Program-made: the position numbers and the translations under genes | Source of the DNA: Candidatus Azobacteroides sp. | GTDB lineage: Bacteria > Bacteroidota > Bacteroidia > Bacteroidales > WRGA01 | Direction: 5' to 3' | Length of the DNA stretch: 64,000 nucleotides | Assembly (NCBI GenBank): GCA_021201815.1 | Contig: JAJQEC010000135.1 | Location: 937 to 64,936, forward strand | The notes under the pieces: model-generated | What the model was told of the DNA's origin: nothing | The model's input: the letters and a program-made list of their open reading frames with translations, nothing else | Database searches by the model: none | Shown here: positions 6,581-29,772 of the stretch, piece by piece | How the letters are laid out: every line of letters begins with the position of its first letter | Position numbering within the stretch: the first letter of the stretch is position 1

Positions 6581-6588
6581 TATCTTTG
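6581..6588 (+). promoter_or_regulatory. -7 promoter box TATCTTTG for the riboswitch-btuB transcript
   Basis: TAnnTTTG match about 15-20 nt upstream of the first riboswitch helix. Confidence 0.45.
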
Positions 6589-6604
6589 CGGTCGGTTTTG
6601 TGTC

Positions 6605-6800
6605 GTATTTTCTGTTTCTTCAGAAAAACGATGAAAAGGGAATCAGGTGGAAATCCTGAACAGACCCGTTGCTGTAAGCTCTATTCAATAACTATTAAAT
6701 AAGTTTCCGGACAATACTCAATCCACTGTTCTTTAAAAAGAATGGGAAGGAAGTTCCGGAACGGAGTAAGTTAGAAGACCTGCCAGAACTTTATCGTTAA
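6605..6800 (+). promoter_or_regulatory. Cobalamin (B12) riboswitch
   Basis: Conserved core AAAAGGGAAUCAGGUGGAAAUCCUGAACAGACCCGUUGCUGUAA (about 6634-6678). CCACUG...UGGGAAGG (about 6723-6750). B12 box AGUUAGAAGACCUGCC (6769-6784). It lies upstream of a TonB-dependent receptor. Confidence 0.85.
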
Positions 6801-6990
6801 AAGCTTTTGGGGAGATAGAGCTTGAGACAAACACCGCAGGTGGACAGATGATGGTCTACCCTGGCGTTTATCCCAACATTATTTTTTTGGAATGTCTTTT
6901 ATTTTGTATCTCTTAAAAGATACGGAATAGAAAACCGTTTCATGATTTCCTGTATGAAAGCTGTTTTGAAAAAACCGTAAAATAGCTCGC

Positions 6991-9036
6991 ATGTCTTTTG
7001 TAAGAACATATTGTATCCTTTTCATACTTAGCTGCTGGCAGTGGGTCTTTCCCCAAAGTCCACAGGATACCATCTATCAGTTGCCGGATGTGGAAGTGGT
7101 GGCTAACCGGTATAAAGAAGTCATTCCTTCCCAAAAACTTACAGGAAAAGAACTGGAATTGCTTAGCAGTCATTCCGTAGCGGATGCAGTGCGTTATTTC
7201 TCCGGGGTTCAAATTAAGGATTACGGAGGGGTAGGAGGATTGAAAACAGTAGATATCCGGAGCATGGGTACTAACCATATGGGCGTTTTTTATGATGGGA
7301 TCCAATTGGGAAATGCACAAAACGGACAGATTGATCTGGGGAAATTTTCGCTGGATAACCTGGAAGAAATTTCCCTTTATAATGGTCAGAAAAGTGAAAT
7401 ATTTCAACCTGCAAAAGATTTTGGTTCGGCAGGAACCATTTACCTGCGGACAAGAAAGCCCTCTTTTAAAGAAAACAAAAAAACAAACATGCGGGGTTTT
7501 TTCCGGACAGGTTCTTTCGATTTGGTGAACCCTTCTGTCCTATGGGAACAGAAACTCAGTGAAAGTGTGAGCCTCTCTTTGAATGCCGAATATATTTATT
7601 CTTCCGGTAAATATAAGTTCCGCTACCGGAAAGTATTTCAGGATGGAAGTGTGGCATGGGATACGACAGCTACCCGTCATAACGGTGATATAAAAGCATT
7701 GCGCCTGGAAAGTGGCTTGAATGGATTTATCCGGGACGGAAGCTGGAACCTCAAAGCTTATTATTATGACTCGGAACGGGGCATTCCGGGAGCTATTGTA
7801 AACAATGTCTGGCAGCGCTCACAACGCCAGTGGGACAGAAATTTCTTTACTCAGGGAAGTTTCCGGAAACAACTTTTGCCGCAATATGATATTCAGGTAA
7901 ATATGAAATATGCCCGGGATTATATGCATTATCTTAATCCCGATACTACCCTGATGTATATTGATAATGTCTTTATTCAACAGGAAATATATGCTTCCGT
8001 AGCAAATAAATATGCGGTGTTCTCTACCTGGGATGTCGCGCTTTCTGTCGATTATCAGTGGAATACGCTGGATGCGGATTTGCAGGATTTTGTTTATCCG
8101 GAACGGAATACTTTACTAGTAGCACTTGCCACGGCTTTTGAATGGAAACGTTTTAAAGGACAAGCAAGTATATTGGGAACTTATGTTTTTGAAGACGTTT
8201 CCCGGAAAGACTACGGCCAAGAGGCTTCCTCTTCATCCGGAAAACCGGAAAATAAGCAGGAATATACCCCTGCTGTCTTTCTCTCTTACCAGCCTTTCAG
8301 TCAATATAATTTAAATCTGCGGGCCTTTTATAAGAATATTTTCCGGATGCCTACTTTTAATGATCTATATTATACGGATATCGGAAATGTGGCTTTACGC
8401 CCCGAATATACCCGACAATATAACCTCGGATTTCAATATGTCACTTCGTTTCATCGTCGTTTCTTTAAAGGAATAAACTTTAGTGCAGATGCCTATTACA
8501 ATGAAGTAACAGATAAGATTATTGCCGTTCCCAAAGGCAATGGGCAGTATCGCTGGATGATGATGAATCTCGGATATGTAGAGATCCGGGGCATTGATGT
8601 GACCGGACGCATGCATGGTACCCTCCCTTATGATATTGGCTGGCAGGTAAGCGTAAGCTATACTTACCAGAAAGCCCAGGACTTTTCCGATCCTTCGGAC
8701 AATGATCCGGAAGCAGGTACATACGGAGGTCAGATTGCTTACATTCCATGGCATAGTGGTTCGGTGATTGCACGCTTCATGTATAAAAAGTGGGATCTGA
8801 ACTATAGTTTTATTTATGTGGGAGAACGGTATCACAATTCCTCCAACATCCTGCAAAACCATGAACAACCCTGGTACACACACGACCTGACAATAGGACG
8901 GAGCTTTGTATGGAACAAGACTGCGGGCAGGTTATCCGCAGAAGTCAATAATATATTTGACCAACAATATGATGTGGTATTGAATTATCCGATGCCCGGA
9001 AGAAATTATAAGCTGATTCTGAAAGTTGAACTGTAA
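6991..9036 (+). CDS. btuB: TonB-dependent corrinoid receptor (BtuB-like)
   Basis: First gene after the cobalamin riboswitch. TonB-box-like LPDVEVVANR. Plug region ADAVRYFSGVQIKDYGGVGGLKTVDIRSMGTNHMGVFYDGIQLGNAQNGQIDL. C-terminal barrel strands ...NYPMPGRNYKLILKVEL. Confidence 0.85.
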   Translation: MSFVRTYCILFILSCWQWVFPQSPQDTIYQLPDVEVVANRYKEVIPSQKLTGKELELLSSHSVADAVRYFSGVQIKDYGGVGGLKTVDIRSMGTNHMGVFYDGIQLGNAQNGQIDLGKFSLDNLEEISLYNGQKSEIFQPAKDFGSAGTIYLRTRKPSFKENKKTNMRGFFRTGSFDLVNPSVLWEQKLSESVSLSLNAEYIYSSGKYKFRYRKVFQDGSVAWDTTATRHNGDIKALRLESGLNGFIRDGSWNLKAYYYDSERGIPGAIVNNVWQRSQRQWDRNFFTQGSFRKQLLPQYDIQVNMKYARDYMHYLNPDTTLMYIDNVFIQQEIYASVANKYAVFSTWDVALSVDYQWNTLDADLQDFVYPERNTLLVALATAFEWKRFKGQASILGTYVFEDVSRKDYGQEASSSSGKPENKQEYTPAVFLSYQPFSQYNLNLRAFYKNIFRMPTFNDLYYTDIGNVALRPEYTRQYNLGFQYVTSFHRRFFKGINFSADAYYNEVTDKIIAVPKGNGQYRWMMMNLGYVEIRGIDVTGRMHGTLPYDIGWQVSVSYTYQKAQDFSDPSDNDPEAGTYGGQIAYIPWHSGSVIARFMYKKWDLNYSFIYVGERYHNSSNILQNHEQPWYTHDLTIGRSFVWNKTAGRLSAEVNNIFDQQYDVVLNYPMPGRNYKLILKVEL

Positions 9037-9048
9037 TCTGTTTAGTTA

Positions 9049-10200
9049 ATGAAAAGAAAAAAAATAGATCTGTTGCTATATGTCGTTTTTATTCTTTCCC
9101 TGTTTTCCTGCCGGGAAGATATCATCGTCTTTATCCCGGAACAGGTAGAAGTATCTATTCCCGAATATACTTCTATTCAGGGTTTTTACCTCCTGAACGA
9201 AGGAAATATGGGAAGTAATAAATCAACCCTAGATTATTATGATTATACCACCGGAGTGTATAGTCGGAATATTTTCGGAGCAGCAAATCCTACTGTCCCT
9301 AAAGAAATGGGAGACGTGGGAAATGACATTAAAATTTACGGAAGTAAACTATACGCAGTCATTAATTGCTCCGATAAAGTAGAAGTAATGGATGCTTCCA
9401 CGGCTGTCCGGCTCGGACAGATTGATATCCCCAACTGCAGGTATATCCGTTTCCATAAAGGATATGCGTATGTCACTTCTTATGCAGGTCCTGTCCGGCT
9501 TAATCCGGAGTATGAACAACTGGGATACGTGGCAAAAGTTGATACCACTACATTTGAAGTACTGGAAGAATGCCTGGTCGGTTTTCAGCCGGATGAACTG
9601 GAAATTGTCAATAATAAGATTTACGTGGCAAATTCCGGTGGATATATGTTTCCCAATTATGAAAATACCGTATCTGTGATTGATATAGACAGTTTCCGGG
9701 AAATCAGGCGAATTGAAGTTGCCATTAACCTCCACAGGCTTCGGGCGGACCGATACGGAAACCTCTGGGTAAGTTCCCGGGGAAATTATTATAGAATCCC
9801 TTCCCGGTTGTATCAGATAGATACAAAAGAAGACCGGCTGGTAGATTCCCTGGATATTGCCGTTTCCAATTTTCATCTGGATGGAGATTCTCTCTATATA
9901 TATAGTACGGAATGGAGTTATATCAGTATGTCCAATGAAATTACATACGGTATTGTAGATGTGGCTAAAAAGGAAGTCGTAACCCGTAATTTTATTACGG
10001 ATGGAACAGACCGGAATATCCGGATTCCTTATGGGATCATGGTAAATCCTATTACAAAAGATATTTATGTAACGGATGCCAAAAATTACGTGTCTCCGGG
10101 TACCCTGTATTGCTTTGATAAGGAAGGAAAACAAAAATGGAATGTGAGGACCGGAGATATACCTGCCCATTTCGTTTTCCTGGGAGAACTAAAAGAATAA
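9049..10200 (+). CDS. Surface lipoprotein, YncE-like beta-propeller; BtuG-like candidate
   Basis: Lipobox LSLFSC. Repeated blade-like segments (FYLLNEGNMGSNKSTLDYYD, KLYAVINCSDKVEVMD, KIYVANSGG, NLWVSSRGN, DIYVTDAKNY). Position immediately after btuB matches gut Bacteroides btuB-btuG loci. The BtuG equivalence is inference. Confidence 0.7.
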   Translation: MKRKKIDLLLYVVFILSLFSCREDIIVFIPEQVEVSIPEYTSIQGFYLLNEGNMGSNKSTLDYYDYTTGVYSRNIFGAANPTVPKEMGDVGNDIKIYGSKLYAVINCSDKVEVMDASTAVRLGQIDIPNCRYIRFHKGYAYVTSYAGPVRLNPEYEQLGYVAKVDTTTFEVLEECLVGFQPDELEIVNNKIYVANSGGYMFPNYENTVSVIDIDSFREIRRIEVAINLHRLRADRYGNLWVSSRGNYYRIPSRLYQIDTKEDRLVDSLDIAVSNFHLDGDSLYIYSTEWSYISMSNEITYGIVDVAKKEVVTRNFITDGTDRNIRIPYGIMVNPITKDIYVTDAKNYVSPGTLYCFDKEGKQKWNVRTGDIPAHFVFLGELKE

Positions 10201-10221: not shown

Positions 10222-11418
10222 ATGAAAAAAAGAATCGTACTTAACATCGGATTATTCCTTTTCCTTTTGCCGGGAATAGAGGCACAGGAAAATTCTCCTT
10301 ACATCAGTAAAGTATATGATTTTATGCCTGCTCCCGGGCAATTTGTCAATGACTTACCTTTCTATGAGGAAGGAGATACGAAAGAGAATATGATCCTTAA
10401 AGTAGAAGAATGTATTACCGGAGATGAAAAAATACTTGTCTCTCTGGGTGCATACGGCGGGTATATTGTTTTCGGATTCGATCATCCTGTAGTAAATGTT
10501 CCCGGAGTAAATGATTTTAAAATATGGGGAAATGCTTTTTATGCCAGTGAAAATCCCAATCCCAATGCGCCGGCCGAAGGGGGTAGTTGTGAACCTGGTA
10601 TCGTCATGGTTTCTTATGATGCCAATGGAAACGGGATTCCGGACGATGAATGGTATGAACTGGCCGGAAGTGAATACAACAGTCCTGCGACAATCCATAA
10701 TTATTCCATCACTTATTATAAACCGGATCCGGAAAAGGAACCGGTACCCGATACGGACTACCCTTATTTAAATGACCTGACTTATATCAGGTGGACAGAC
10801 AACCAGGGAGAAACCGGATATGTTGCCGGAAATGTGTTTCATGAACAATCTTACTGGCCGGAATGGTATGACGGAGAGACACTTACTTTTACCGGTGCCC
10901 GGTTGGCTGACAATTACATAGACGAAAGCGGTGATGGTTCTTATTATGTACAGTATGCCTATGGGTGGGGATATGCCGACAATCACCCCAATACGGATGA
11001 ACGTGCTGACTTTAATATCGAATGGGCAGTGGATAAAGATGGGAATGCTGTTTATTTGCCGGAAATCCATTTTATAAAAGTTTATACAGCCGTCAACCAA
11101 TATTGCGGATGGCTGGGTGAAACTTCCACAGAAGTAATGGGTGCGGTGGACCTGCATGCGGATGCGACTTCTTCCGTCCGGTATGGAAAAGAAGAGCAGC
11201 TGAGCAAGATATGGTTTAACACATGGACCCGTCAATTATATGTGCATACGGAAAAGCAGCAGGATATTTTTATCCATTCGGTAACAGGAAAGATGGTAAG
11301 TAATTGGGTACTGGCTCCGGGGGAAAATGAAATAAGCCTTTCCGATCTCTCTTCCGGAGTTTATTTAGTCAAGGTGGGAAATACAACTGCAAAAATAATT
11401 ATCACAGATTTATATTAA
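10222..11418 (+). CDS. Secreted protein of unrecognised family with a T9SS C-terminal sorting domain
   Basis: Signal peptide ...LLPGIEAQ. C-terminus IFIHSVTGKMVSNWVLAPGENEISLSDLSSGVYLVKVGNTTAKIIITDLY is CTD-like. I recognise no catalytic motif. Confidence 0.7.
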   Translation: MKKRIVLNIGLFLFLLPGIEAQENSPYISKVYDFMPAPGQFVNDLPFYEEGDTKENMILKVEECITGDEKILVSLGAYGGYIVFGFDHPVVNVPGVNDFKIWGNAFYASENPNPNAPAEGGSCEPGIVMVSYDANGNGIPDDEWYELAGSEYNSPATIHNYSITYYKPDPEKEPVPDTDYPYLNDLTYIRWTDNQGETGYVAGNVFHEQSYWPEWYDGETLTFTGARLADNYIDESGDGSYYVQYAYGWGYADNHPNTDERADFNIEWAVDKDGNAVYLPEIHFIKVYTAVNQYCGWLGETSTEVMGAVDLHADATSSVRYGKEEQLSKIWFNTWTRQLYVHTEKQQDIFIHSVTGKMVSNWVLAPGENEISLSDLSSGVYLVKVGNTTAKIIITDLY

Positions 11419-11441: not shown

Positions 11442-13106
11442 ATGAAAAAAAGAAATACACTGATTTGTTTTCTTCTTCTTTGTTATTTGTCCGCAAATGC
11501 CGGTCTGAATGTAGATTATACAAAAGGCATTTTCTTTCTGAATGAAGACTGGTTCGGACATACAAATAGTTCGCTGAATTTTATGACAGCAGAAGGAGAG
11601 TTTCTTTATAGAGTTTATACGGAAGCAAATCCCGGAGAAGCTTTTGGCTGTACCGCTCAGTTTGCTGCTATTTACGGAGATAAATTATATGTGATTTCCA
11701 AGCAGAAAGCCGAAGCAGGGGATACGGATTATATTCCCGGTGGAAGGATTGTTGTGGCAGATGCCATCACCCTGAAAAAAATAAAAGGAATTGACAACAT
11801 CGGAGGGAGTGATGGCCGTTCTTTTTTAGGAGTAGATAAAAAAACAGCATACATCGGCACTTCCAATGGAATCTTTCTGTTTGACCTGGAAGAACTTGCG
11901 GTTGGCGATCTGATCGAAGGGACCGATGGAGCTTCCGGTTTGTACTCCTCACAGACCGGAATGATGGTTCGTGCAGGGAGATATGTTTTCGCCGCAAAGC
12001 AGGGGGAAGGAGTGCTGGTTATTGATGCAACTACCCATCGAATCCATACGGTAATTGCGGAAGCAGATATTGTGACCCTTACCCGGAGTAAGGACGGAAG
12101 GGTATGGGCTGCACGCAACGATGCATTCGTGAAAATTAATCCGTATACCCTGGAGACGGAAACCATTGCATTTCCGGAGGGTGTTACGATCGTGGCTTCA
12201 TGGCCGGCCTGGAACGCCGGAAGTTTATGTGCCGGTGTCCGGGAAAATGTCTTGTATTTTACCAATCAGGGGAATTTCGGTTTCAACGGAGAAACCGTAC
12301 GGAAATATTACATTGATTCCGGAGAGTTTGATCCGTCCTTTTTCATATTACCGGACCAGACAGATGAAGAAGGCAAAATCCTGAGATACCGCCAGACTTT
12401 TTACGGGGCCGGCGTAAGAGTAGATCCGGCTTCTGAAAATCTCATCATTACAACTACTGAAACAGGGGGTAGCTCTCATTATCAGAAGAACTGGGTTCAT
12501 ATTGTAAGTGGAAACAGCGGAGAACTGATTGATACGAAAGAACTGGATGCATACTATTGGTTTCCGGCAATGCCCTTTTTCCCGAATAATACTCTTCCGG
12601 AAACAATAGACCTGACAGAATGGAATCCGGAAGAGGGAGAATCTTATTCTCTTTGGCTGGGAGGAGTCGTAGTAAACAAGGAAAATCCTGATTTGGGTAC
12701 TGTAGAGTCCGTATTATCTAATTCGGATGAATCTCTTGTATCCGCCATACTGGAAGATGACATGCTTCTCCTGACGCCTTTATCAGGAGAAGCCGGAACA
12801 GCTACTATCATCCTTCAATTTAATTCCAACGGACAACTTATTCCACATGCTATAGAAGTAAAAATCGGAATGGTTTCCGGTTTAAAGGGTGGATTACAGT
12901 CCGGTTCTTATTACAGAATGTCCGGGAAAACATTGTTTGTTTATGCCGGTTCCGGAGAAAAAGTAATTCTTTCGGACCTTCAGGGACGGATTCTTTATTC
13001 GATGGTTGCCACAGAAAAAGAACTGGTTATTCCTTCGAATACTTTGCCTGAAGGCATCTACCTTTTACATATCGGAGGAATAAATCATAAGATTATTATT
13101 AAATAA
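11442..13106 (+). CDS. Secreted YncE-like beta-propeller plus Ig-like domain plus T9SS CTD; divergent paralogue of 9049..10200
   Basis: Signal peptide. N-terminus GIFFLNEDWFGHTNSSLNF parallels GFYLLNEGNMGSNKSTLDY of the lipoprotein. KLYVISKQ blade motif. C-terminus KVILSDLQGRILYS...GIYLLHIGGINHKIIIK. Confidence 0.75.
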   Translation: MKKRNTLICFLLLCYLSANAGLNVDYTKGIFFLNEDWFGHTNSSLNFMTAEGEFLYRVYTEANPGEAFGCTAQFAAIYGDKLYVISKQKAEAGDTDYIPGGRIVVADAITLKKIKGIDNIGGSDGRSFLGVDKKTAYIGTSNGIFLFDLEELAVGDLIEGTDGASGLYSSQTGMMVRAGRYVFAAKQGEGVLVIDATTHRIHTVIAEADIVTLTRSKDGRVWAARNDAFVKINPYTLETETIAFPEGVTIVASWPAWNAGSLCAGVRENVLYFTNQGNFGFNGETVRKYYIDSGEFDPSFFILPDQTDEEGKILRYRQTFYGAGVRVDPASENLIITTTETGGSSHYQKNWVHIVSGNSGELIDTKELDAYYWFPAMPFFPNNTLPETIDLTEWNPEEGESYSLWLGGVVVNKENPDLGTVESVLSNSDESLVSAILEDDMLLLTPLSGEAGTATIILQFNSNGQLIPHAIEVKIGMVSGLKGGLQSGSYYRMSGKTLFVYAGSGEKVILSDLQGRILYSMVATEKELVIPSNTLPEGIYLLHIGGINHKIIIK

Positions 13107-13270
13107 AGATAGGTGTACTATCTGTTTTTACCAAGAATGATTTTATTCCCGTGCTTAAAAAGCAGTACTGTTAACCCGGGTCTTGGAAAACCTCACCTTG
13201 CCAGTACGCTAGTAGGAGTGCCAGAGGTAATCCCAGGATTTTCCACCTACCTTGCCATCAATGCTTTACA

Positions 13271-13318
13271 ACCACGGAGTGGCGACATATTATTAGCCGT
13301 GCTGCCTCAGCACACGGT
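13271..13318 (+). repeat. REP-like double-hairpin repeat, copy a
   Basis: CCACGGAGTGG hairpin, then ATATTATTA, then GCCGTGCTGCCTCAGCACACGG hairpin. Related copies lie at 15922-15970, 27184-27233 (inverted) and 27385-27433. Confidence 0.6.
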
Positions 13319-13419
13319 ATTTATTTAAAAGAAAAGATAGCTATATAAACAAAAGACTATTTTAATATCGTTCAAAAAATTAATTACCGGTTTATAAGCC
13401 AATTTAAAATTAAAAACAA

Positions 13420-15741
13420 ATGAAGAAAATTTTCTCTTTTTTATTCCTGTTTACAGTAGTTTGTGGAAGCAGTATGTTTGCACAACAAAAGAGTTATTCC
13501 GAAAGAAATTTCTCTTTTAATAACTTCCGGTCTTTAAACGAAAAATCGGAGTCGGAACAAAAAATCAAAACCCTCACCCGTTCCACAACTGCAGAAGCAC
13601 TGGGGCACGTGGTTTTTGCTATTGAAAAGTTTACGCTGGGACAGGGATATTTTGTAGAACCCATTCTTGTTCCTTTTTATGAGGGAGAATCCTGTGCGCA
13701 TATTTTGCTGAATGTCGTAGGAGAAGAAAATTGTGATTACTCGCCTTTTCCGAATTTTTACCTTTCAGCTATTAAAGATGCGGACTCCGGAGTTCTCAAT
13801 ATTCCGCAGTATATATATGACCAGTGCGGATTTGACGATGATTACCTGGATTCGGATATCAATGACGATGAATGGTTGGGAGAATTCGATTACACCTTTA
13901 TGTCCGGATGGATGTATTTTGTAAATAATGTCGCAGCTCCTGTAGGCATGGGAGCCTATAATCCGCAGGACGGAGATGTAATACGCGTTCAGTTCACCCT
14001 TCAGGGGTACGGAATGGATCTGGGTTCTGACTTTATGGGTTCCGGAGGAGTTGCTGTCGTAGCCAATAAAGATGAACTGACCCGAATGGTCGCAACCATC
14101 AATAGTGCGGAAAATAAAACGGAGTTACTAGCGGATGCAGCTATAAAAACAGCTTACGAAAATGCCTATGCCATTTTAGAAGATATGACAAGTTCGCAGG
14201 CGCTGACGAACGAAGCGGCAGGTAAGCTGAAGAATGCACTGGAAGCATTTGAAGCCGGAAATAATCCCGGTTTGCCTGACTATCAGAGCTACTGGCCGTC
14301 TTTCCGCAGAGATGATAATAACCAGGCGATTGTAAATACCCCATTGGCAGTTCGGGAAAGGGATATTCAGGAACTATGGAAAAGACAGATCGGTTCCGGA
14401 TGGTCTTCCAATGGAGCTCCTATTATTGTGAATGACAATGTGTATATTACCATTGGTAATAAAATTATGATCATCGATCCGGAAACAGGAACAATTGTAC
14501 GGGAAAGTACCCTTGCCGGTAGCGTCGGATTCTTTTCGACAATTGCTTATGGCGACGGAATGATCTTTGTACCTGTCGGAAACGGAGTTATTCAGGCAAT
14601 CAATGCCGAAACACTGGAATCCCTGTGGAAAACGGAAACGATAAGCAGTCACCAGACATTGTGCCAGATCACATATAAAGATGGTCTCTTATATACCGGA
14701 ACGGTGAAAATGGGAAATCCGAATACCGGTTATTTTTTCTGTATTGATGTAACGGACGAAGATCCTTCCCGACCGGATGAAATTAAAGAATGGAAATGGC
14801 AGTCGGATGATACCGGCGGGTACTACTGGAGTGGTGCTGTGGTGGTAGGAGATGCGGTTATCTTCGGTGGCGACAGTGGTGTTCTTTATTCCTGTAACCG
14901 GTTGACAGGGGAGAGGATCGATTCTTATGATATTCATGGTGAAAATGATCAGAGTACGAAAACGATCCGTTGTACTGTTTCTTATGATGAAGACACTCAA
15001 AGTGTATATTTTACAGGAAAAGAAACACAGATGGCTTATAAAGTCCCGATGAATGCCGATGGCAGCTTTGACAAGGATAATATCCTTACCTGTGAGCTGG
15101 CAGGACAGGCGACTACTGCCCTTGTGGTTTATAACGGCCGTGCGTATGTAACTTCCGGGACCATGACAAGTGATGGCGGGATGGATATAATCGATGTGAA
15201 CACCATGTCGTTAATCAGCAATGTAAATATCGGTGGTATTTCCCAGGCTTCTCCATTATTAACTACCGCGTATGCTACGGCTGAAAACAATTATAAGGTG
15301 TATCTTTATATTACCCTGAATAATGCAGCGGGAAGTATTGTCTGCATTGAAGATTACGAAGGAAATAACCAGCCTTTTGTAAAGTTTACTTATCAGCCTT
15401 CTACTGCACAATATGCTACCCATAGCCTGATTGCAGATGAAAAGGGTACTTTGTATTATAAGAATGATTCCGGTTATTTGTTTGCATTGGCTTCCGGGGG
15501 CACACCAACCGGTACCGACCAGATGACAGAGGAACGTTTCTCTGTATATCCGAATCCGTTTACGGACTACATTGTGGTTTCAACCGCAGCAGAAGAAACG
15601 GTTGCTGTTTATGATTTATCCGGAAAATGTGTGTTCAGTACTCTTTCAAAAGGAAATAGCACATGGATAGATACTTCTTCTTTCCCGAAAGGAGTTTACA
15701 TGGTTAAATGTGGATCGGAAGCAATGAAAATAGTAAAGTAA
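13420..15741 (+). CDS. Secreted protein: transcobalamin-like (DUF4430-type) domain, helical linker, PQQ/BamB-like beta-propeller, T9SS CTD
   Basis: Residues ~60-200 (GHVVFAIEKFTLGQGYFVEP...ESCAHILLNVVG...FMSGWMYFVNNVAAPVGMGAYNPQDGDVIRVQFT) fit my recollection of the DUF4430 signature (GW.Y.VN...y.l.dGD.i...). PQQ-like repeats are visible (NVYITIGNKIMIIDPETGTIVRE; GMIFVPVGNGVIQAINAETLESLWK). C-terminus FSVYPNPFTDYIVV...VAVYDLSGKCVF...GVYMVKCGSEAMKIVK. Confidence 0.75.
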   Translation: MKKIFSFLFLFTVVCGSSMFAQQKSYSERNFSFNNFRSLNEKSESEQKIKTLTRSTTAEALGHVVFAIEKFTLGQGYFVEPILVPFYEGESCAHILLNVVGEENCDYSPFPNFYLSAIKDADSGVLNIPQYIYDQCGFDDDYLDSDINDDEWLGEFDYTFMSGWMYFVNNVAAPVGMGAYNPQDGDVIRVQFTLQGYGMDLGSDFMGSGGVAVVANKDELTRMVATINSAENKTELLADAAIKTAYENAYAILEDMTSSQALTNEAAGKLKNALEAFEAGNNPGLPDYQSYWPSFRRDDNNQAIVNTPLAVRERDIQELWKRQIGSGWSSNGAPIIVNDNVYITIGNKIMIIDPETGTIVRESTLAGSVGFFSTIAYGDGMIFVPVGNGVIQAINAETLESLWKTETISSHQTLCQITYKDGLLYTGTVKMGNPNTGYFFCIDVTDEDPSRPDEIKEWKWQSDDTGGYYWSGAVVVGDAVIFGGDSGVLYSCNRLTGERIDSYDIHGENDQSTKTIRCTVSYDEDTQSVYFTGKETQMAYKVPMNADGSFDKDNILTCELAGQATTALVVYNGRAYVTSGTMTSDGGMDIIDVNTMSLISNVNIGGISQASPLLTTAYATAENNYKVYLYITLNNAAGSIVCIEDYEGNNQPFVKFTYQPSTAQYATHSLIADEKGTLYYKNDSGYLFALASGGTPTGTDQMTEERFSVYPNPFTDYIVVSTAAEETVAVYDLSGKCVFSTLSKGNSTWIDTSSFPKGVYMVKCGSEAMKIVK

Positions 15742-15784
15742 AAAAATAAACGGGTTCTTCGGAATTTCAGTTTAGTTTGGGTTT

Positions 15785-15822
15785 CCCCTCTGTGAATCTT
15801 TGATTTTCAGAGGGGATTTTTT
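15785..15822 (+). terminator. Rho-independent terminator closing the B12 locus
   Basis: CCCCTCTG (15785-15792) pairs with CAGAGGGG (15808-15815), followed by ATTTTTT. Confidence 0.7.
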
Positions 15823-15870
15823 AATGTGTCAATGTGCTAATGTGCCAATGTTTCAATATGTTAATGTGCT
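15823..15870. repeat. Six tandem 8-mers (AATGTGNN family)
   Basis: AATGTGTC AATGTGCT AATGTGCC AATGTTTC AATATGTT AATGTGCT, strict period 8. Confidence 0.8.
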
Positions 15871-15921
15871 ACTAAGAAAATATGGGCATCTCCTTTTATG
15901 TGTATCTCTATTCTACCAACA

Positions 15922-15970
15922 AGCCACGTAGTGGCGTTATATTATTAGCCGTGCGGCCTCAGCCCACGGG
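15922..15970 (+). repeat. REP-like double-hairpin repeat, copy b
   Basis: GCCACGTAGTGGC hairpin, TTATATTATTA, then GCCGTGCGGCCTCAGCCCACGG hairpin. Confidence 0.6.
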
Positions 15971-15973
15971 CCT

Positions 15974-16021
15974 AATGTGCCGATGTGCTAATATGCCAAT
16001 ATACTAATGTGATAATGGGGA
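15974..16021. repeat. Second array of six tandem 8-mers
   Basis: AATGTGCC GATGTGCT AATATGCC AATATACT AATGTGAT AATGGGGA. Same family and period as 15823-15870. The two arrays bracket REP-like copy b. Confidence 0.75.
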
Positions 16022-16113
16022 AATAACCTCTTATATATAGCCACAATTCTTAAGTTATTTTAAGTTAAATGTATTGAGAATTCAAGCAATCACATTATAA
16101 AAACAAAAACAGT

Positions 16114-16240
16114 CAAAAGTGCATCCGGATTTTTCAAAAGCGGATGCGGATTTTTCAAAAGCGCATCCGCTTTTATGTCAATTTTCACTCCGCTTTTGAA
16201 AAAAGCAGATGCACTTTTTGTAAAAGTGGATGCGCTTTTT
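16114..16240. repeat. Five ~21-bp A-tract/T-tract units with a GCATCC or GGATGC core
   Basis: CAAAAGTGCATCCGGATTTTT, CAAAAGCGGATGCGGATTTTT, CAAAAGCGCATCCGCTTTT, (24-nt gap), AAAAAAGCAGATGCACTTTTT, GTAAAAGTGGATGCGCTTTTT. Core orientation is GCATCC in units 1 and 3 and G/A-GATGC in units 2, 4 and 5. Confidence 0.7.
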
Positions 16241-16803
16241 AAGAAAAATATAAGGAAAATGCGGGGTAAAAACAGGAACGGGATATGCCTACACAAAGCT
16301 AAAAAAGGGTATGACGCAGGAAAAGAAAGAAATAAAAACGGTGTTTTTCTTTCCGGAGGGCGCCTGATTCCCATATACAGAGGAATGAAAGGAGAGAGAT
16401 GATTCGGAAGAAAAATCGTTTTGTAAAGTTTTATACGAAATTTCCGGGTGATTCCGGTCGGATAAAACAGCCTCCTTTTTTCGTAAAAACAGAAGATTTC
16501 TTTCCCTTTTTCCTTCCCGGAAGAATAAAAAGAAAGAACTCCCTGCAAGAAGCAAAAGGATAGGAGTGCATAATATGTATAAAATGTCCGGCATCTTATT
16601 ATTTTATCTTTCGTAATCTTTTCAAAGATACAACATAAAAAAGCAAAAGTCAAGTCCCGGAAGAAAAAACAGACTAGTTTGTTTTATACTCATGCCTCAA
16701 TCAACAGGTAAATGATACCTTTTTCCTGCCTCTGTTACGTACTCCGATTGGTTTTGAGATAAAAAAATATCCACTTTACTCTATAAGTTGCGGGTTTTTA
16801 GTT

Positions 16804-27183: not shown

Positions 27184-27233
27184 AGCCGTGTGCTGAGGCA
27201 GCACGGCTAATGACATGGCGCCACTCTGTGGCT
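27184..27233 (-). repeat. REP-like double-hairpin repeat, copy c (inverted)
   Basis: AGCCGTGTGCTGAGGCAGCACGGCTAAT...GCCACTCTGTGGC is the reverse complement of the pattern at 13271-13318. Confidence 0.6.
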
Positions 27234-27433: not shown

Positions 27434-27445
27434 TCGCTTGGTAGC

Positions 27446-27515
27446 AAAAAAAATGGTTGTCTCCCGACAACCAATCTTTTTATTAACCTTAAAATCTAAT
27501 ACTATGAAAAAATCA
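27446..27515 (-). ncRNA. Candidate ~70-nt sRNA, copy 1
   Basis: On the minus strand: TTTG (27551-27548), 19 bp, TATATTTG (27528-27521), about 55 nt, GGTTGTC-GGGA-GACAACC hairpin (27472-27455), then A + U8. A near-identical unit lies at 29568-29635. Confidence 0.35.
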
Positions 27516-27900
27516 CAATGCAAATATATTGTTGATTTTATTTCTTCCAAAATAAATTTTATCAAATATTGTTAAAGAGAAAGGGGTAAATCGTTAAAGA
27601 TGGTTTATTGCTGTTTAGTGAATGGATGAATATATTAGGAGAGTTAGCCAACAAAAGAGTTTCTCTTTTATCATTTTCTTTTATGGTTTTGTTTTTTTGG
27701 AAATTGAAGAAAGGTATTTTTATTAAAGATGATATGTAAATTTTTTTCTCTAATGGTTTTATTCTTTTTTATAAAAATAAATTATCTACCTAATTGAATA
27801 AAAATACCCTTATAAGCAAAAAAGAATAAAAAATATTTTTGTCGGCTAATTTTTCCACTTATAATGTCAATTTTTACACATCTTTAATAGAAAATACTTT

Positions 27901-28032: not shown

Positions 28033-29220
28033 ATGAAAAAAATACTTTATTTTATTTTATCTTCTTTTCTTTTGTTTGCGTGCGGGAATGATGAAAAGTC
28101 GGTAAAAATATCAGTTACCAATGATTCTCCTTTAGAAAGGATAAATGAGATCATTGAAATATCGTGGGCAGATATTAAAGAAAAGTTAGGACTGACAGAT
28201 TCTTCTGTTATTGTAGTTTTAAATGATCAGCAAATTCCTTATCAGTTGATTACAGAAGGAAATAATGAGCCGGAGAAGTTAATATTTCCGGTAAATGTTC
28301 AGGCCGGCGAAACTGTTATCTATACGGTTAAAAGCGGAGATCCCGAAGATTTTACAGTAAAAACATACGGTCGTTTTGTCCCGGAACGGAAAGATGACTT
28401 TGCATGGGAAAATAATAAAATAGCTTTCCGTATGTACGGTCCGGCTCTCTTGCCTATTGATGGCCCGAGTAATGGGATAGATGCCTGGGTAAAAAGAACG
28501 GAAGAAATGATCATTGATAAATGGTATAAAAATGATTTGGCAGGTGTTGCTTCTTATCATATAGATCATGGGGAAGGACTTGATGGGTATAAAGTAGGAC
28601 GTACGCTGGGTGCCGGAGGAATGGCTCCTTTTGTAAATGATACTTTATGGCTTGCAGAAAATTACGTTACTCAGGAATTATTAGATCAGGGGCCGTTAAG
28701 AACATCTTTCAGACTTACTTATAAACCCTTTAATGTAAATGGGGATAGTTCTGTGGTAGAAACTAAGATAATTAGTCTTGATGCCGATTCTTATTTTAAT
28801 AAAGTAATAGAAAAATATCAGGGAATTAAAGCGGCTATTCCTGTAGCAGCAGGTATTGTTTTGAAAACAAATGAAGCGAAACCTGTGGATAAAACAGAAG
28901 ATGCTGATCCTGCTTACAAAGCTGTTTTACAACCGGAAAAAGGATATGTTATCTATGCGGAAACAGCGGATAAAGCTGCTCCTGAACACGATAACGGAAT
29001 TATTTATACGGCCGTTATATTTCCAACTCCTCTTAAAGAAGCTAAATTGGCAGAAAAACATGCTTTGGCTATTGTGGACTATCAACCGGAAGAAAGTCTG
29101 GTATATTACAATGGGGTAGGTTGGAGCAAAGCTGGTTTTAATTCGGAAGAAGAATGGGTAACGTATGTAGATCAATTTGCTGAAAAACTAAGAAGTCCGT
29201 TAAAAGTAAGTTTAAAATAA
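28033..29220 (+). CDS. DUF4861-family lipoprotein
   Basis: Lipobox LLFACG. Signature YGRFVPERKDDFAWENNKIAFRMYGPAL...GIDAWVKR as I recall it for DUF4861. Confidence 0.8.
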   Translation: MKKILYFILSSFLLFACGNDEKSVKISVTNDSPLERINEIIEISWADIKEKLGLTDSSVIVVLNDQQIPYQLITEGNNEPEKLIFPVNVQAGETVIYTVKSGDPEDFTVKTYGRFVPERKDDFAWENNKIAFRMYGPALLPIDGPSNGIDAWVKRTEEMIIDKWYKNDLAGVASYHIDHGEGLDGYKVGRTLGAGGMAPFVNDTLWLAENYVTQELLDQGPLRTSFRLTYKPFNVNGDSSVVETKIISLDADSYFNKVIEKYQGIKAAIPVAAGIVLKTNEAKPVDKTEDADPAYKAVLQPEKGYVIYAETADKAAPEHDNGIIYTAVIFPTPLKEAKLAEKHALAIVDYQPEESLVYYNGVGWSKAGFNSEEEWVTYVDQFAEKLRSPLKVSLK

Positions 29221-29567
29221 AAATTATTTCTTGCTTAAGGATATAGGATCAGTAAAACAAAATAATGAATGTATAAGATATTAGTGGGATTCAATTCACT
29301 AATATCTTTTTTTATACCTGTTTAGCAACTTTCCGGAAAACTCCTGCTTTAATAATATCTCATTTATTCTTTCTACAATGACTGGATGTATGGGATATAG
29401 ATTTTGATTATCAGGTTCCATTAGAAAAAATAAGGATTCATCCCGATTATTTTTACATTCAATGTTGAATTGGAGTTTTCGTTGCTTCCGAAGGTAGATT
29501 TTGTACGGTGAGTTAATTAATTAAAATCTATCTTTTCAGGGATGATATCTACTTTTATGTAATATAT

Positions 29568-29635
29568 AAAAAAAGGTTGTCTCCCAACAACCAATCTTTC
29601 ATTAACCTTAAAATCTAATACTATGAAAAAAATCA
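29568..29635 (-). ncRNA. Candidate ~70-nt sRNA, copy 2
   Basis: On the minus strand: TATATTTG (29648-29641), conserved body, GGTTGTT-GGGA-GACAACC hairpin, then U7. The C-to-T change in the stem keeps pairing as a G-U wobble. Confidence 0.35.
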
Positions 29636-29772
29636 CAGTACAAATATATACATATATTCATATTCCGACAAGGTGAAATTCTCAAATCATGTTAAAGAAA
29701 TAGCGCAAAAATGATAAAAAATATTAATTTTTTTTATTCTACGTATTGTTTGGAAAATATCTTATCAATAAA

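Follow-up and report, generated by a model that had tools for sequence, protein, structure and literature searches.

In a 64,000-nucleotide (nt) stretch of contig JAJQEC010000135.1 from the Bacteroidales bacterium Candidatus Azobacteroides sp. (hereafter the window), the gene at 13420-15741 on the forward strand encodes what is probably a cell-surface corrinoid-capture protein, made when vitamin B12 is scarce. Its open reading frame (ORF) is intact (773 amino acids, aa) and specifies, in order, a signal peptide, a DUF4430 head, a three-helix stalk, an eight-bladed beta-propeller and a type A C-terminal sorting domain (CTD) of the type IX secretion system (T9SS). A Gram-positive-type head and propeller, exported by T9SS as predicted and encoded in a Bacteroidales BtuBG operon, is a new setting for these domains, seen so far in two genomes, and the putative B12 link of the protein rests on comparative data. 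The domains, all on the forward strand, are as follows.

13420..13482, + strand: signal peptide, residues 1-21, predicted cleavage A21/Q22 (read from the sequence and an alignment)
13597..14034, + strand: transcobalamin-beta-type SLBB / DUF4430 domain, residues ~60-205 (PF14478; AlphaFold predicted local distance difference test, pLDDT, ~90; Foldseek matches 5np4, 2bb5, 2pmv, 4kki and 3u7z)
14062..14274, + strand: three-helix stalk, residues ~215-285 (AlphaFold helices 218-229, 233-254 and 260-280; tblastn)
14302..15504, + strand: eight-bladed BamB/YxaL-type (PQQ_2) beta-propeller, residues ~295-695 (Pfam, AlphaFold, Foldseek)
15532..15738, + strand: T9SS type A CTD, residues ~705-773 (PF18962, TIGR04183, CTD of 7pzj)

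The head carries the clearest family signature. The Pfam DUF4430 profile (PF14478) matches residues 150 to 193 at 35.8 bits against a cut-off of 23.8 (E-value 1.1e-8), a match that covers the C-terminal half of the profile only (positions 32 to 71 of 72). An earlier reading of the DNA from its letters alone, the original prediction, had proposed an N-terminal DUF4430/transcobalamin-like domain from a sequence pattern (SGWMYFVNNVAAPVGMGAYNPQDGDVIRVQFT); the pattern is present at residues 162 to 193, and the Pfam search that the prediction called for bears the assignment out. For structural modeling, residues 45 to 290 were aligned with 35 relatives (alignment A1) and submitted to AlphaFold, which gave a mean pLDDT of 89.7 and a predicted template modeling score (pTM) of 0.87. 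In this model, residues ~62 to 193 form a beta-grasp of two strands, a helix, a hairpin and three further strands (E62-69, E77-86, H92-100, hairpin E105-107/E115-119, E152-154, E163-168, E187-193), and the hairpin inserted after the helix is thus seen in the predicted structure; an extra helix and an acidic loop occupy residues 120 to 150. A Foldseek search of the PDB with the model returns at ranks 1 to 19 only transcobalamin, intrinsic factor, haptocorrin and the R. gnavus DUF4430 protein 3u7z, with probabilities of 0.99-1.0, and matches after rank 19 have probabilities of at most 0.06. The isolated transcobalamin beta domain (5np4, 5no0) reaches a template modeling (TM) score of 0.63-0.64 over the 105-residue target domain. 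The comparison with the transcobalamin/intrinsic-factor beta domain that had been proposed therefore agrees across the 19 best fold matches; a DUF4430 match above cut-off and a transcobalamin-type fold were found, where the prediction had named a missing match or a different fold as telling against it. Across the module family, E69, G76, P81, Y114, L153, G163, W164, R189 and G198 do not vary (alignment A1, renumbered by +44), and, judged by position and not by superposition, these residues fall mostly within or beside the hairpin and strands 3 to 5.

The beta domains of animal transcobalamin, intrinsic factor and haptocorrin (5NP4, 2BB5, 2PMV, 4KKI) share with the head the SLBB form of the beta-grasp, with its hairpin after the helix (Foldseek probability 1.0, TM 0.63 over 105 residues), and the common Pfam family PF14478. 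The two differ in several respects. Pairwise sequence similarity is undetectable, and the head adds the extra helix and acidic loop (~30 residues). It stands at the N-terminus with the propeller after it, whereas the animal beta domain lies C-terminal to an alpha/alpha toroid, and, unlike animal transcobalamin, it is bacterial and part of a protein predicted to be secreted by T9SS. Neither Pfam nor the model detects an alpha/alpha toroid in the protein, where the propeller takes the toroid's place; the pairing of toroid and beta domain that defines a full transcobalamin-type binder is thus absent.

Relatives of the head are abundant, and their neighborhoods point to B12. A word-indexed search of 5.8 billion clusters recovered just one relative over the full length, the T9SS protein encoded by Viscerimonas tarda (Bacteroidales, Dysgonomonadaceae; 59% identity); the remaining matches are large surface proteins, and the named ones are from Firmicutes. 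The V. tarda gene is preceded by a riboswitch (97.8 bits), a TonB-dependent receptor, a DUF5074 gene and a DUF5074+CTD gene, in the gene order of the window, except that the receptor and the btuG-like gene are separated by two genes of the other strand, one for a ParE-like toxin and its small partner (L001 5578-6086). A scan of GTDB species representatives, a collection that does not hold the window's genome, gave 286 head relatives, of which 78 loci were kept: 77 from Firmicutes (Paenibacillus, Cohnella, Clostridium, Terrisporobacter, Eubacterium and others) and one from a Propionibacteriaceae metagenome-assembled genome (MAG). In tblastn searches of these loci, the stalk accompanies the head at 65, CbiQ is present at 47 and an energy-coupling factor (ECF) ATPase at 43. 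In the large surface proteins from the word-indexed search, head and stalk occur together with prenyltransferase-like alpha/alpha toroids, SLH, Big_2, LPXTG, cohesin/dockerin or the propeller seen in the window protein, a distribution that marks them as a mobile module.

Rfam cobalamin riboswitches lie on the same strand at seven of nine diverse head loci. A custom covariance model built from 12 riboswitches (threshold of at least 50 bits) finds them at no fewer than 54 of the 78 loci (at 47 of these 54, no sequence had gone into the model), and all 73 of its matches are on the strand of the gene, mostly 200-1100 nt upstream. In Paenibacillus contaminans, for instance, the first gene after the riboswitch encodes an SLH protein of 1738 aa that contains two DUF4430 domains and an alpha/alpha toroid; next come another DUF4430 protein, CbiQ and an ABC ATPase. 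A Firmicute MAG has a riboswitch immediately upstream of a gene for a head+propeller protein, and genes for a DUF4430 protein and an ECF transporter come after it. The B12 connection is thus stronger than could be read from the window, the module family being overwhelmingly riboswitch-linked. This linkage also bears on the identity of the ligand. In Lactobacillus sakei, an ECF-like system whose alpha and beta proteins resemble transcobalamin has been proposed as a haem importer (preprint 10.1101/864751), and the SLBB head might by the same token bind haem or another tetrapyrrole instead of a corrinoid. That reading seems very improbable given the ties of the family to cobalamin riboswitches (at least 54 of 78 loci) and to the BtuR adenosyltransferase, and given that the gene in the window follows btuB, btuG, btuH and btuK genes.

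The Gram-positive SLBB surface proteins are the closest counterparts of the window protein outside Bacteroidales. A clade of transcobalamin-like SLBB domains, regarded as an innovation of Gram-positives, was predicted in 2007 to consist of B12 scavengers (Burroughs, Balaji, Iyer & Aravind 2007, PMC1796856), and the same study recorded an SLBB + beta-propeller fusion in Clostridium. The window protein shares with these proteins the head module (40-55% identity), the three-helix stalk and the propeller (36-45%); they are secreted and associated with the B12 regulon, as is likely for the window protein. They are wall-anchored (SLH, LPXTG) and feed ECF transporters of CbiQ/CbiO type, whereas the window protein carries a T9SS CTD and is encoded behind btuB-btuG-btuH-btuK; their usual partner is the toroid (72 of the 78 loci) and only rarely the propeller (4 of 78) that the window protein has. 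An exhaustive HMMER search of 1.84 billion representatives nevertheless shows that head and propeller often meet: 4401 relatives were found, and about 37 of the 143 representatives newly listed among the best 150 (50%-identity clusters) have the two fused, in varied orders. The original prediction had called the architecture unusual; the fusion itself is not, given these cases and the 2007 Clostridium example, but its Bacteroidales, T9SS and BtuB setting is. The frequency with which head and propeller are fused or adjacent supports a functional pairing of the two.

The propeller itself agrees with what had been predicted, approximately eight blades of PQQ/BamB-like type. The PQQ_2 profile matches at 47.9 bits (cut-off 27.6), and the AlphaFold model has 31 strands at residues 317 to 691 (pLDDT ~90), which fits about eight blades of four. 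The best fold matches are YxaL of Bacillus velezensis (7dxn, TM 0.79-0.81) and many BamB structures (TM 0.75-0.81). YxaL (7DXN) and BamB thus share the fold and the PQQ_2 family with the propeller, although sequence identity is just 13-20%. To our knowledge, neither has a known B12 link. A PQQ-dehydrogenase reading is disfavored, as XoxF, PedH and their kin reach a TM of only ~0.44 (normalized to the window protein), far below BamB and YxaL. The domain spans ~400 aa.

The original prediction had spoken of the propeller as a scaffold; a neutral one it is not, since it occurs in B12-riboswitch operons that lack the head. Three Firmicute proteins with the propeller only have DUF4430, CbiQ, an ECF ATPase, an ECF S-component and/or the BtuR adenosyltransferase as operon neighbors, and a riboswitch match lies upstream of every one. 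In Bacteroidota, further T9SS proteins share the propeller at 46-55% identity (from the same HMMER search). Gene neighborhoods were recovered for three of these, P0065, P0066 and P0067; of the three, P0065 and P0067 end operons of a riboswitch, a TonB-dependent receptor and DUF5074. P0065 (L166 8001-10931) closes a sister Bacteroidota riboswitch-btuB-btuG operon, and P0066 (L169 20-2743), on a short contig, adjoins a DUF5074 gene. Both are T9SS proteins that combine a propeller of the window protein's type (54-55% identical) with a different N-terminal domain of ~220 aa (FTFDDIxFWVGxG...WGFxW...). This domain has no match in Pfam, NCBIfam or the PDB, and kinship with SLBB was ruled out (hhalign probability 0.3). 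P0067 and P0068 fuse the BamB-like propeller to a DUF5074 propeller of BtuG/BtuK type, with Big_2 domains and a T9SS CTD, and P0067 (L165 5604-9704) is preceded by a riboswitch and by genes for a TonB-dependent receptor and DUF5074. A propeller of the same type also forms part of a 1295-aa protein that is very common in human-gut metagenomes (loci L085-L160, e.g. L098 3577-10547), where it adjoins a DUF4430 protein, DUF58 and a TgpA transglutaminase; locus L083 has the same DUF58/TgpA/MoxR neighborhood together with BtuR, and DUF4430 was not recorded there. As judged from the riboswitch operons, the propeller is B12-linked even without the head. That it accompanies both ECF-type and TonB-dependent uptake makes the ligand or the SLBB head a more likely partner for it than a transporter.

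Genomic neighborhood analysis of the window places the gene at what is probably the end of a Bacteroidales B12-uptake operon.

6581..6801, + strand: aptamer of a cobalamin riboswitch, heading the operon (Rfam RF00174, 76 bits, gathering score 31.5)
6991..9036, + strand: btuB-like TonB-dependent receptor (Pfam Plug and TonB_dep_Rec_b-barrel)
9049..10200, + strand: btuG homologue, DUF5074 propeller (8ptf/8ptd, E 7e-45; 8blw_B, E 1.1e-44; Pfam DUF5074)
10222..11418, + strand: BtuH-domain protein with T9SS CTD (8blw_B residues 393-661, E 1.3e-77; 7biz (BtuH2), E 3.5e-41; Por_Secre_tail)
11442..13106, + strand: BtuK1-like DUF5074 propeller (Pfam DUF5074, 382 bits; 9s6c (BtuK1-CNCbl), E 3e-12)
13107..13419, + strand: intergenic gap of 313 nt, with copy 1 of a 46-nt repeat at 13272-13317 and, just before UAUUUAUUU, a hairpin at 13296-13318
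15784..15822, + strand: intrinsic terminator, a 14-bp hairpin and U6 (folding free energy, dG, -20.9 kcal/mol; z -4.6; matched by 0 of 200 shuffles; inverted repeat I8)
15924..15969, + strand: copy 2 of the 46-nt repeat, 89% identical to 13272-13317 (zero matches expected by chance)

A Bacteroidetes -7 promoter motif (TATCTTTG) was found by motif scan at the 5' edge of the riboswitch, and the genes beyond the terminator are convergent and unrelated. The top NCBIfam match of the receptor is TonB-B12, below its cut-off, and the BtuG homologue has a lipoprotein signal (LFSC). The operon is of the same kind as those that encode BtuG, BtuH, BtuJ (DUF4465) and BtuK in B. thetaiotaomicron, a riboswitch and btuB with surface accessory proteins, and the presumed job of the window protein is also the same, an extracellular B12 relay (PMC8941943, PMC10404256, PMC12751083, PMC13616437). 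The three genes between the receptor and the gap match PDB entries of BtuG/H/K type, whereas the window protein itself matches none of 8blw, 7biz, 9s6c or the BtuJ entries in a search of PDB sequences and shows no sequence similarity to BtuG, BtuH, BtuJ or BtuK. Its head differs from all four in fold, and its propeller is eight-bladed and BamB-like instead of seven-bladed and of DUF5074 type. In the literature searched, none of the characterized Bacteroides accessory binders (BtuG/H/J/K/L) is a DUF4430 protein.

As to transcription, the original prediction had placed the gene last in a B12-riboswitch operon. The riboswitch at 6581-6801 and the position of the gene as the last of five on its strand uphold the claim, and the gap of 313 nt with a hairpin that precedes the gene qualifies it; because of this gap, co-transcription, although likely, is something we infer. 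Among public sequencing runs, none was found to contain the gene. A sigma-70 scan was set aside (34 sites against a shuffle mean of 28.4, sd 4.0), its model being ill-suited to Bacteroidetes, and the motif TAnnTTTG was used instead; it does not occur in the gap, where Rfam likewise finds no element beyond a chance-level match. One could take the gene for an independently transcribed adhesin or scaffold beside the btu operon, in which DUF4430 would be a glycan or cell-surface tether and not a B12 binder. The gap with its terminator-like hairpin and the 46-nt repeat that brackets the gene would suit such a unit, as would the protein-protein contacts that are the usual role of BamB/YxaL-type propellers and the suggestion that proteins of this kind may be tied to polysaccharide by their accessory domains (Burroughs et al. 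2007, PMC1796856). Still, this reading is improbable: the position after the btu genes is kept in V. tarda, where the gap is just 92 nt, sister Bacteroidota operons have the same propeller in the same position, the riboswitch linkage of head and propeller is family-wide, and the TAnnTTTG scan gives the gap no promoter.

Sequence features at both ends indicate export through T9SS. The N-terminus is a hydrophobic signal sequence, presumably cleaved between A21 and Q22, both of which are conserved in the V. tarda homologue. The CTD scores well above the cut-offs of Por_Secre_tail (PF18962, 49.3 bits against 27) and NCBIfam TIGR04183 (48 bits against 23), as the original prediction of a T9SS CTD would have it, and matches the CTD of PDB 7pzj (E 1.8e-4); a CTD above cut-offs and an N-terminal Sec signal together are the features of T9SS type A cargo. 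AlphaFold models the CTD poorly because few of the aligned sequences have one. Just past the signal peptide, a nine-residue motif (ERNFSFNNF, residues 28 to 36; 13501-13527) is invariant between the window protein and its V. tarda homologue in a region that AlphaFold predicts as disordered; this short motif may serve in docking or processing. The predicted export sets the protein apart from BtuG/H/J/K of B. thetaiotaomicron, which are lipoproteins. Within the operon, 10222-11418 and 11442-13106 also lack a canonical lipoprotein signal, unlike their B. thetaiotaomicron counterparts; the CTD of 10222-11418 scores above cut-off, and the C-terminal region of 11442-13106 is CTD-like below threshold (TIGR04183, 21.3 bits against 23; Por_Secre_tail, 14.4 against 27). 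If the CTDs of the BtuH-like and BtuK-like proteins are both real, three of the four accessory proteins of the operon would be T9SS cargo.

These elements can be joined into a putative route for the corrinoid. The signal peptide would carry the protein across the inner membrane, and the type A CTD through T9SS, where the CTD would normally be removed and the cargo linked to the outer-membrane surface. The transcobalamin-beta-type SLBB domain would then sit at the far end of the three-helix stalk, atop the eight-bladed propeller, and would bind a corrinoid in the manner of the isolated transcobalamin beta domain. Head and propeller would be functional partners, the propeller either covering the ligand's other face, as the alpha domain does in transcobalamin, or else holding the ligand or handing it on. 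From there, the corrinoid would pass to the BtuG-BtuB complex encoded upstream. Capture by the head, with the propeller completing the site or passing the ligand on, is proposed because the isolated transcobalamin beta domain retains cobalamin (Cbl) and binds cobinamide, and because the alpha and beta domains come together in a Cbl-dependent way (PMC5599065).

A related possibility, rather unlikely in our estimate, is that the protein leaves the cell surface as a soluble 'corrinophore', in the medium or on vesicles, with BtuG/BtuB recapturing the protein or its cargo. Cargo with a type A CTD can be either anchored or released, and the sequence does not separate the two fates. Vesicle-borne BtuJ of B. 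thetaiotaomicron provides a precedent as an extracellular B12 reservoir (PMC12751083; preprint 10.1101/2025.07.01.662609). The long stalk and the propeller, on the other side, recall the wall-anchored Gram-positive relatives (SLH, LPXTG), which are retained on the cell.

Several observations weigh against corrinoid capture at the cell surface, the reading that we prefer. Transcobalamin is not matched at the sequence level: the full protein finds only CTD and BamB-like chains among PDB sequences, the module-family profile finds nothing there, and a search with the conserved motif gives no transcobalamin alignment, so that B12-contact residues cannot be mapped one to one. Riboswitch control of the gene is made less certain by the hairpin in the gap, which is modest and followed by an interrupted U-tract (dG -12.3, z -3.1), and the strong hairpin in the 92-nt gap before the V. 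tarda homologue. Within the families, the loci of Eubacterium callanderi and E. aggregans have DUF4430 neighbors and no strong riboswitch nearby, and the human-gut group L085-L160 has no strong cobalamin riboswitch within 8 kb. The full-length AlphaFold model (alignment A3; pLDDT 81, pTM 0.58) leaves the relative placement of head and propeller uncertain. Finally, the searched literature contained no report of measured corrinoid binding by a bacterial DUF4430 protein.

On the origin of the gene, GC (0.427) and GC at third codon positions (GC3, 0.399) are inside the range of the neighboring genes, and neither gives a sign of recent horizontal transfer. Since head and propeller have many relatives in Firmicutes B12-riboswitch/ECF-transporter operons, the gene most likely arose by transfer into Bacteroidales followed by addition of the T9SS CTD.

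The surroundings of the gene are rich in repeats. The 46-nt direct repeat at 13272-13317 and 15924-15969 brackets the gene and holds a hairpin (GCCGUGC...GCACACGG); a third, partial copy lies at 27186-27215 on the minus strand, ~230 nt downstream of a FopS small RNA (sRNA). The repeat could be a REP-like element or the footprint of the insertion of this gene. Past the terminator, runs of an 8-nt tandem repeat (YAATGTGC) stand on either side of repeat copy 2 (15822-15875 and 15965-16026), and at 16113-16245 a 21-nt unit (TCAAAAGYGSATSCGGATTTT) occurs four times directly, with additional inverted copies of up to 90% complementarity, overlapping a weak 187-aa minus-strand ORF without a Pfam match. 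Two sRNAs of the FopS family of Bacteroidetes (27443-27516 and 29565-29636, both on the minus strand; 76.8 and 70.5 bits, gathering score 56) flank an ORF at 28033-29220.

Gut communities, like other anaerobic ones, are shaped by competition for B12, and the Bacteroides relay of BtuG, BtuH, BtuJ and BtuK is under active study; the present locus suggests that the parts list of the B12 surface relay is still open. Here, a head with the fold of animal transcobalamin, widespread in Gram-positives, appears to have been recruited to the BtuB system of a Gram-negative bacterium, with predicted export by T9SS in place of the lipoprotein route. Its residues ~55 to 290 offer a compact construct for a direct test of corrinoid binding by a bacterial DUF4430 protein, and an uncharacterized propeller family is flagged as a member of the B12 regulon in two phyla. 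More tentatively, T9SS-bearing Bacteroidales may have added to the BtuB-BtuG relay a Gram-positive head of transcobalamin type together with the propeller that partners it, yielding a further class of surface binder distinct from BtuG/H/J/K, in which the BamB-like propeller would itself be a new corrinoid-handling domain with the role of the transcobalamin alpha domain. If true, this would explain why the propeller recurs in B12-riboswitch operons beside two unrelated types of transporter.

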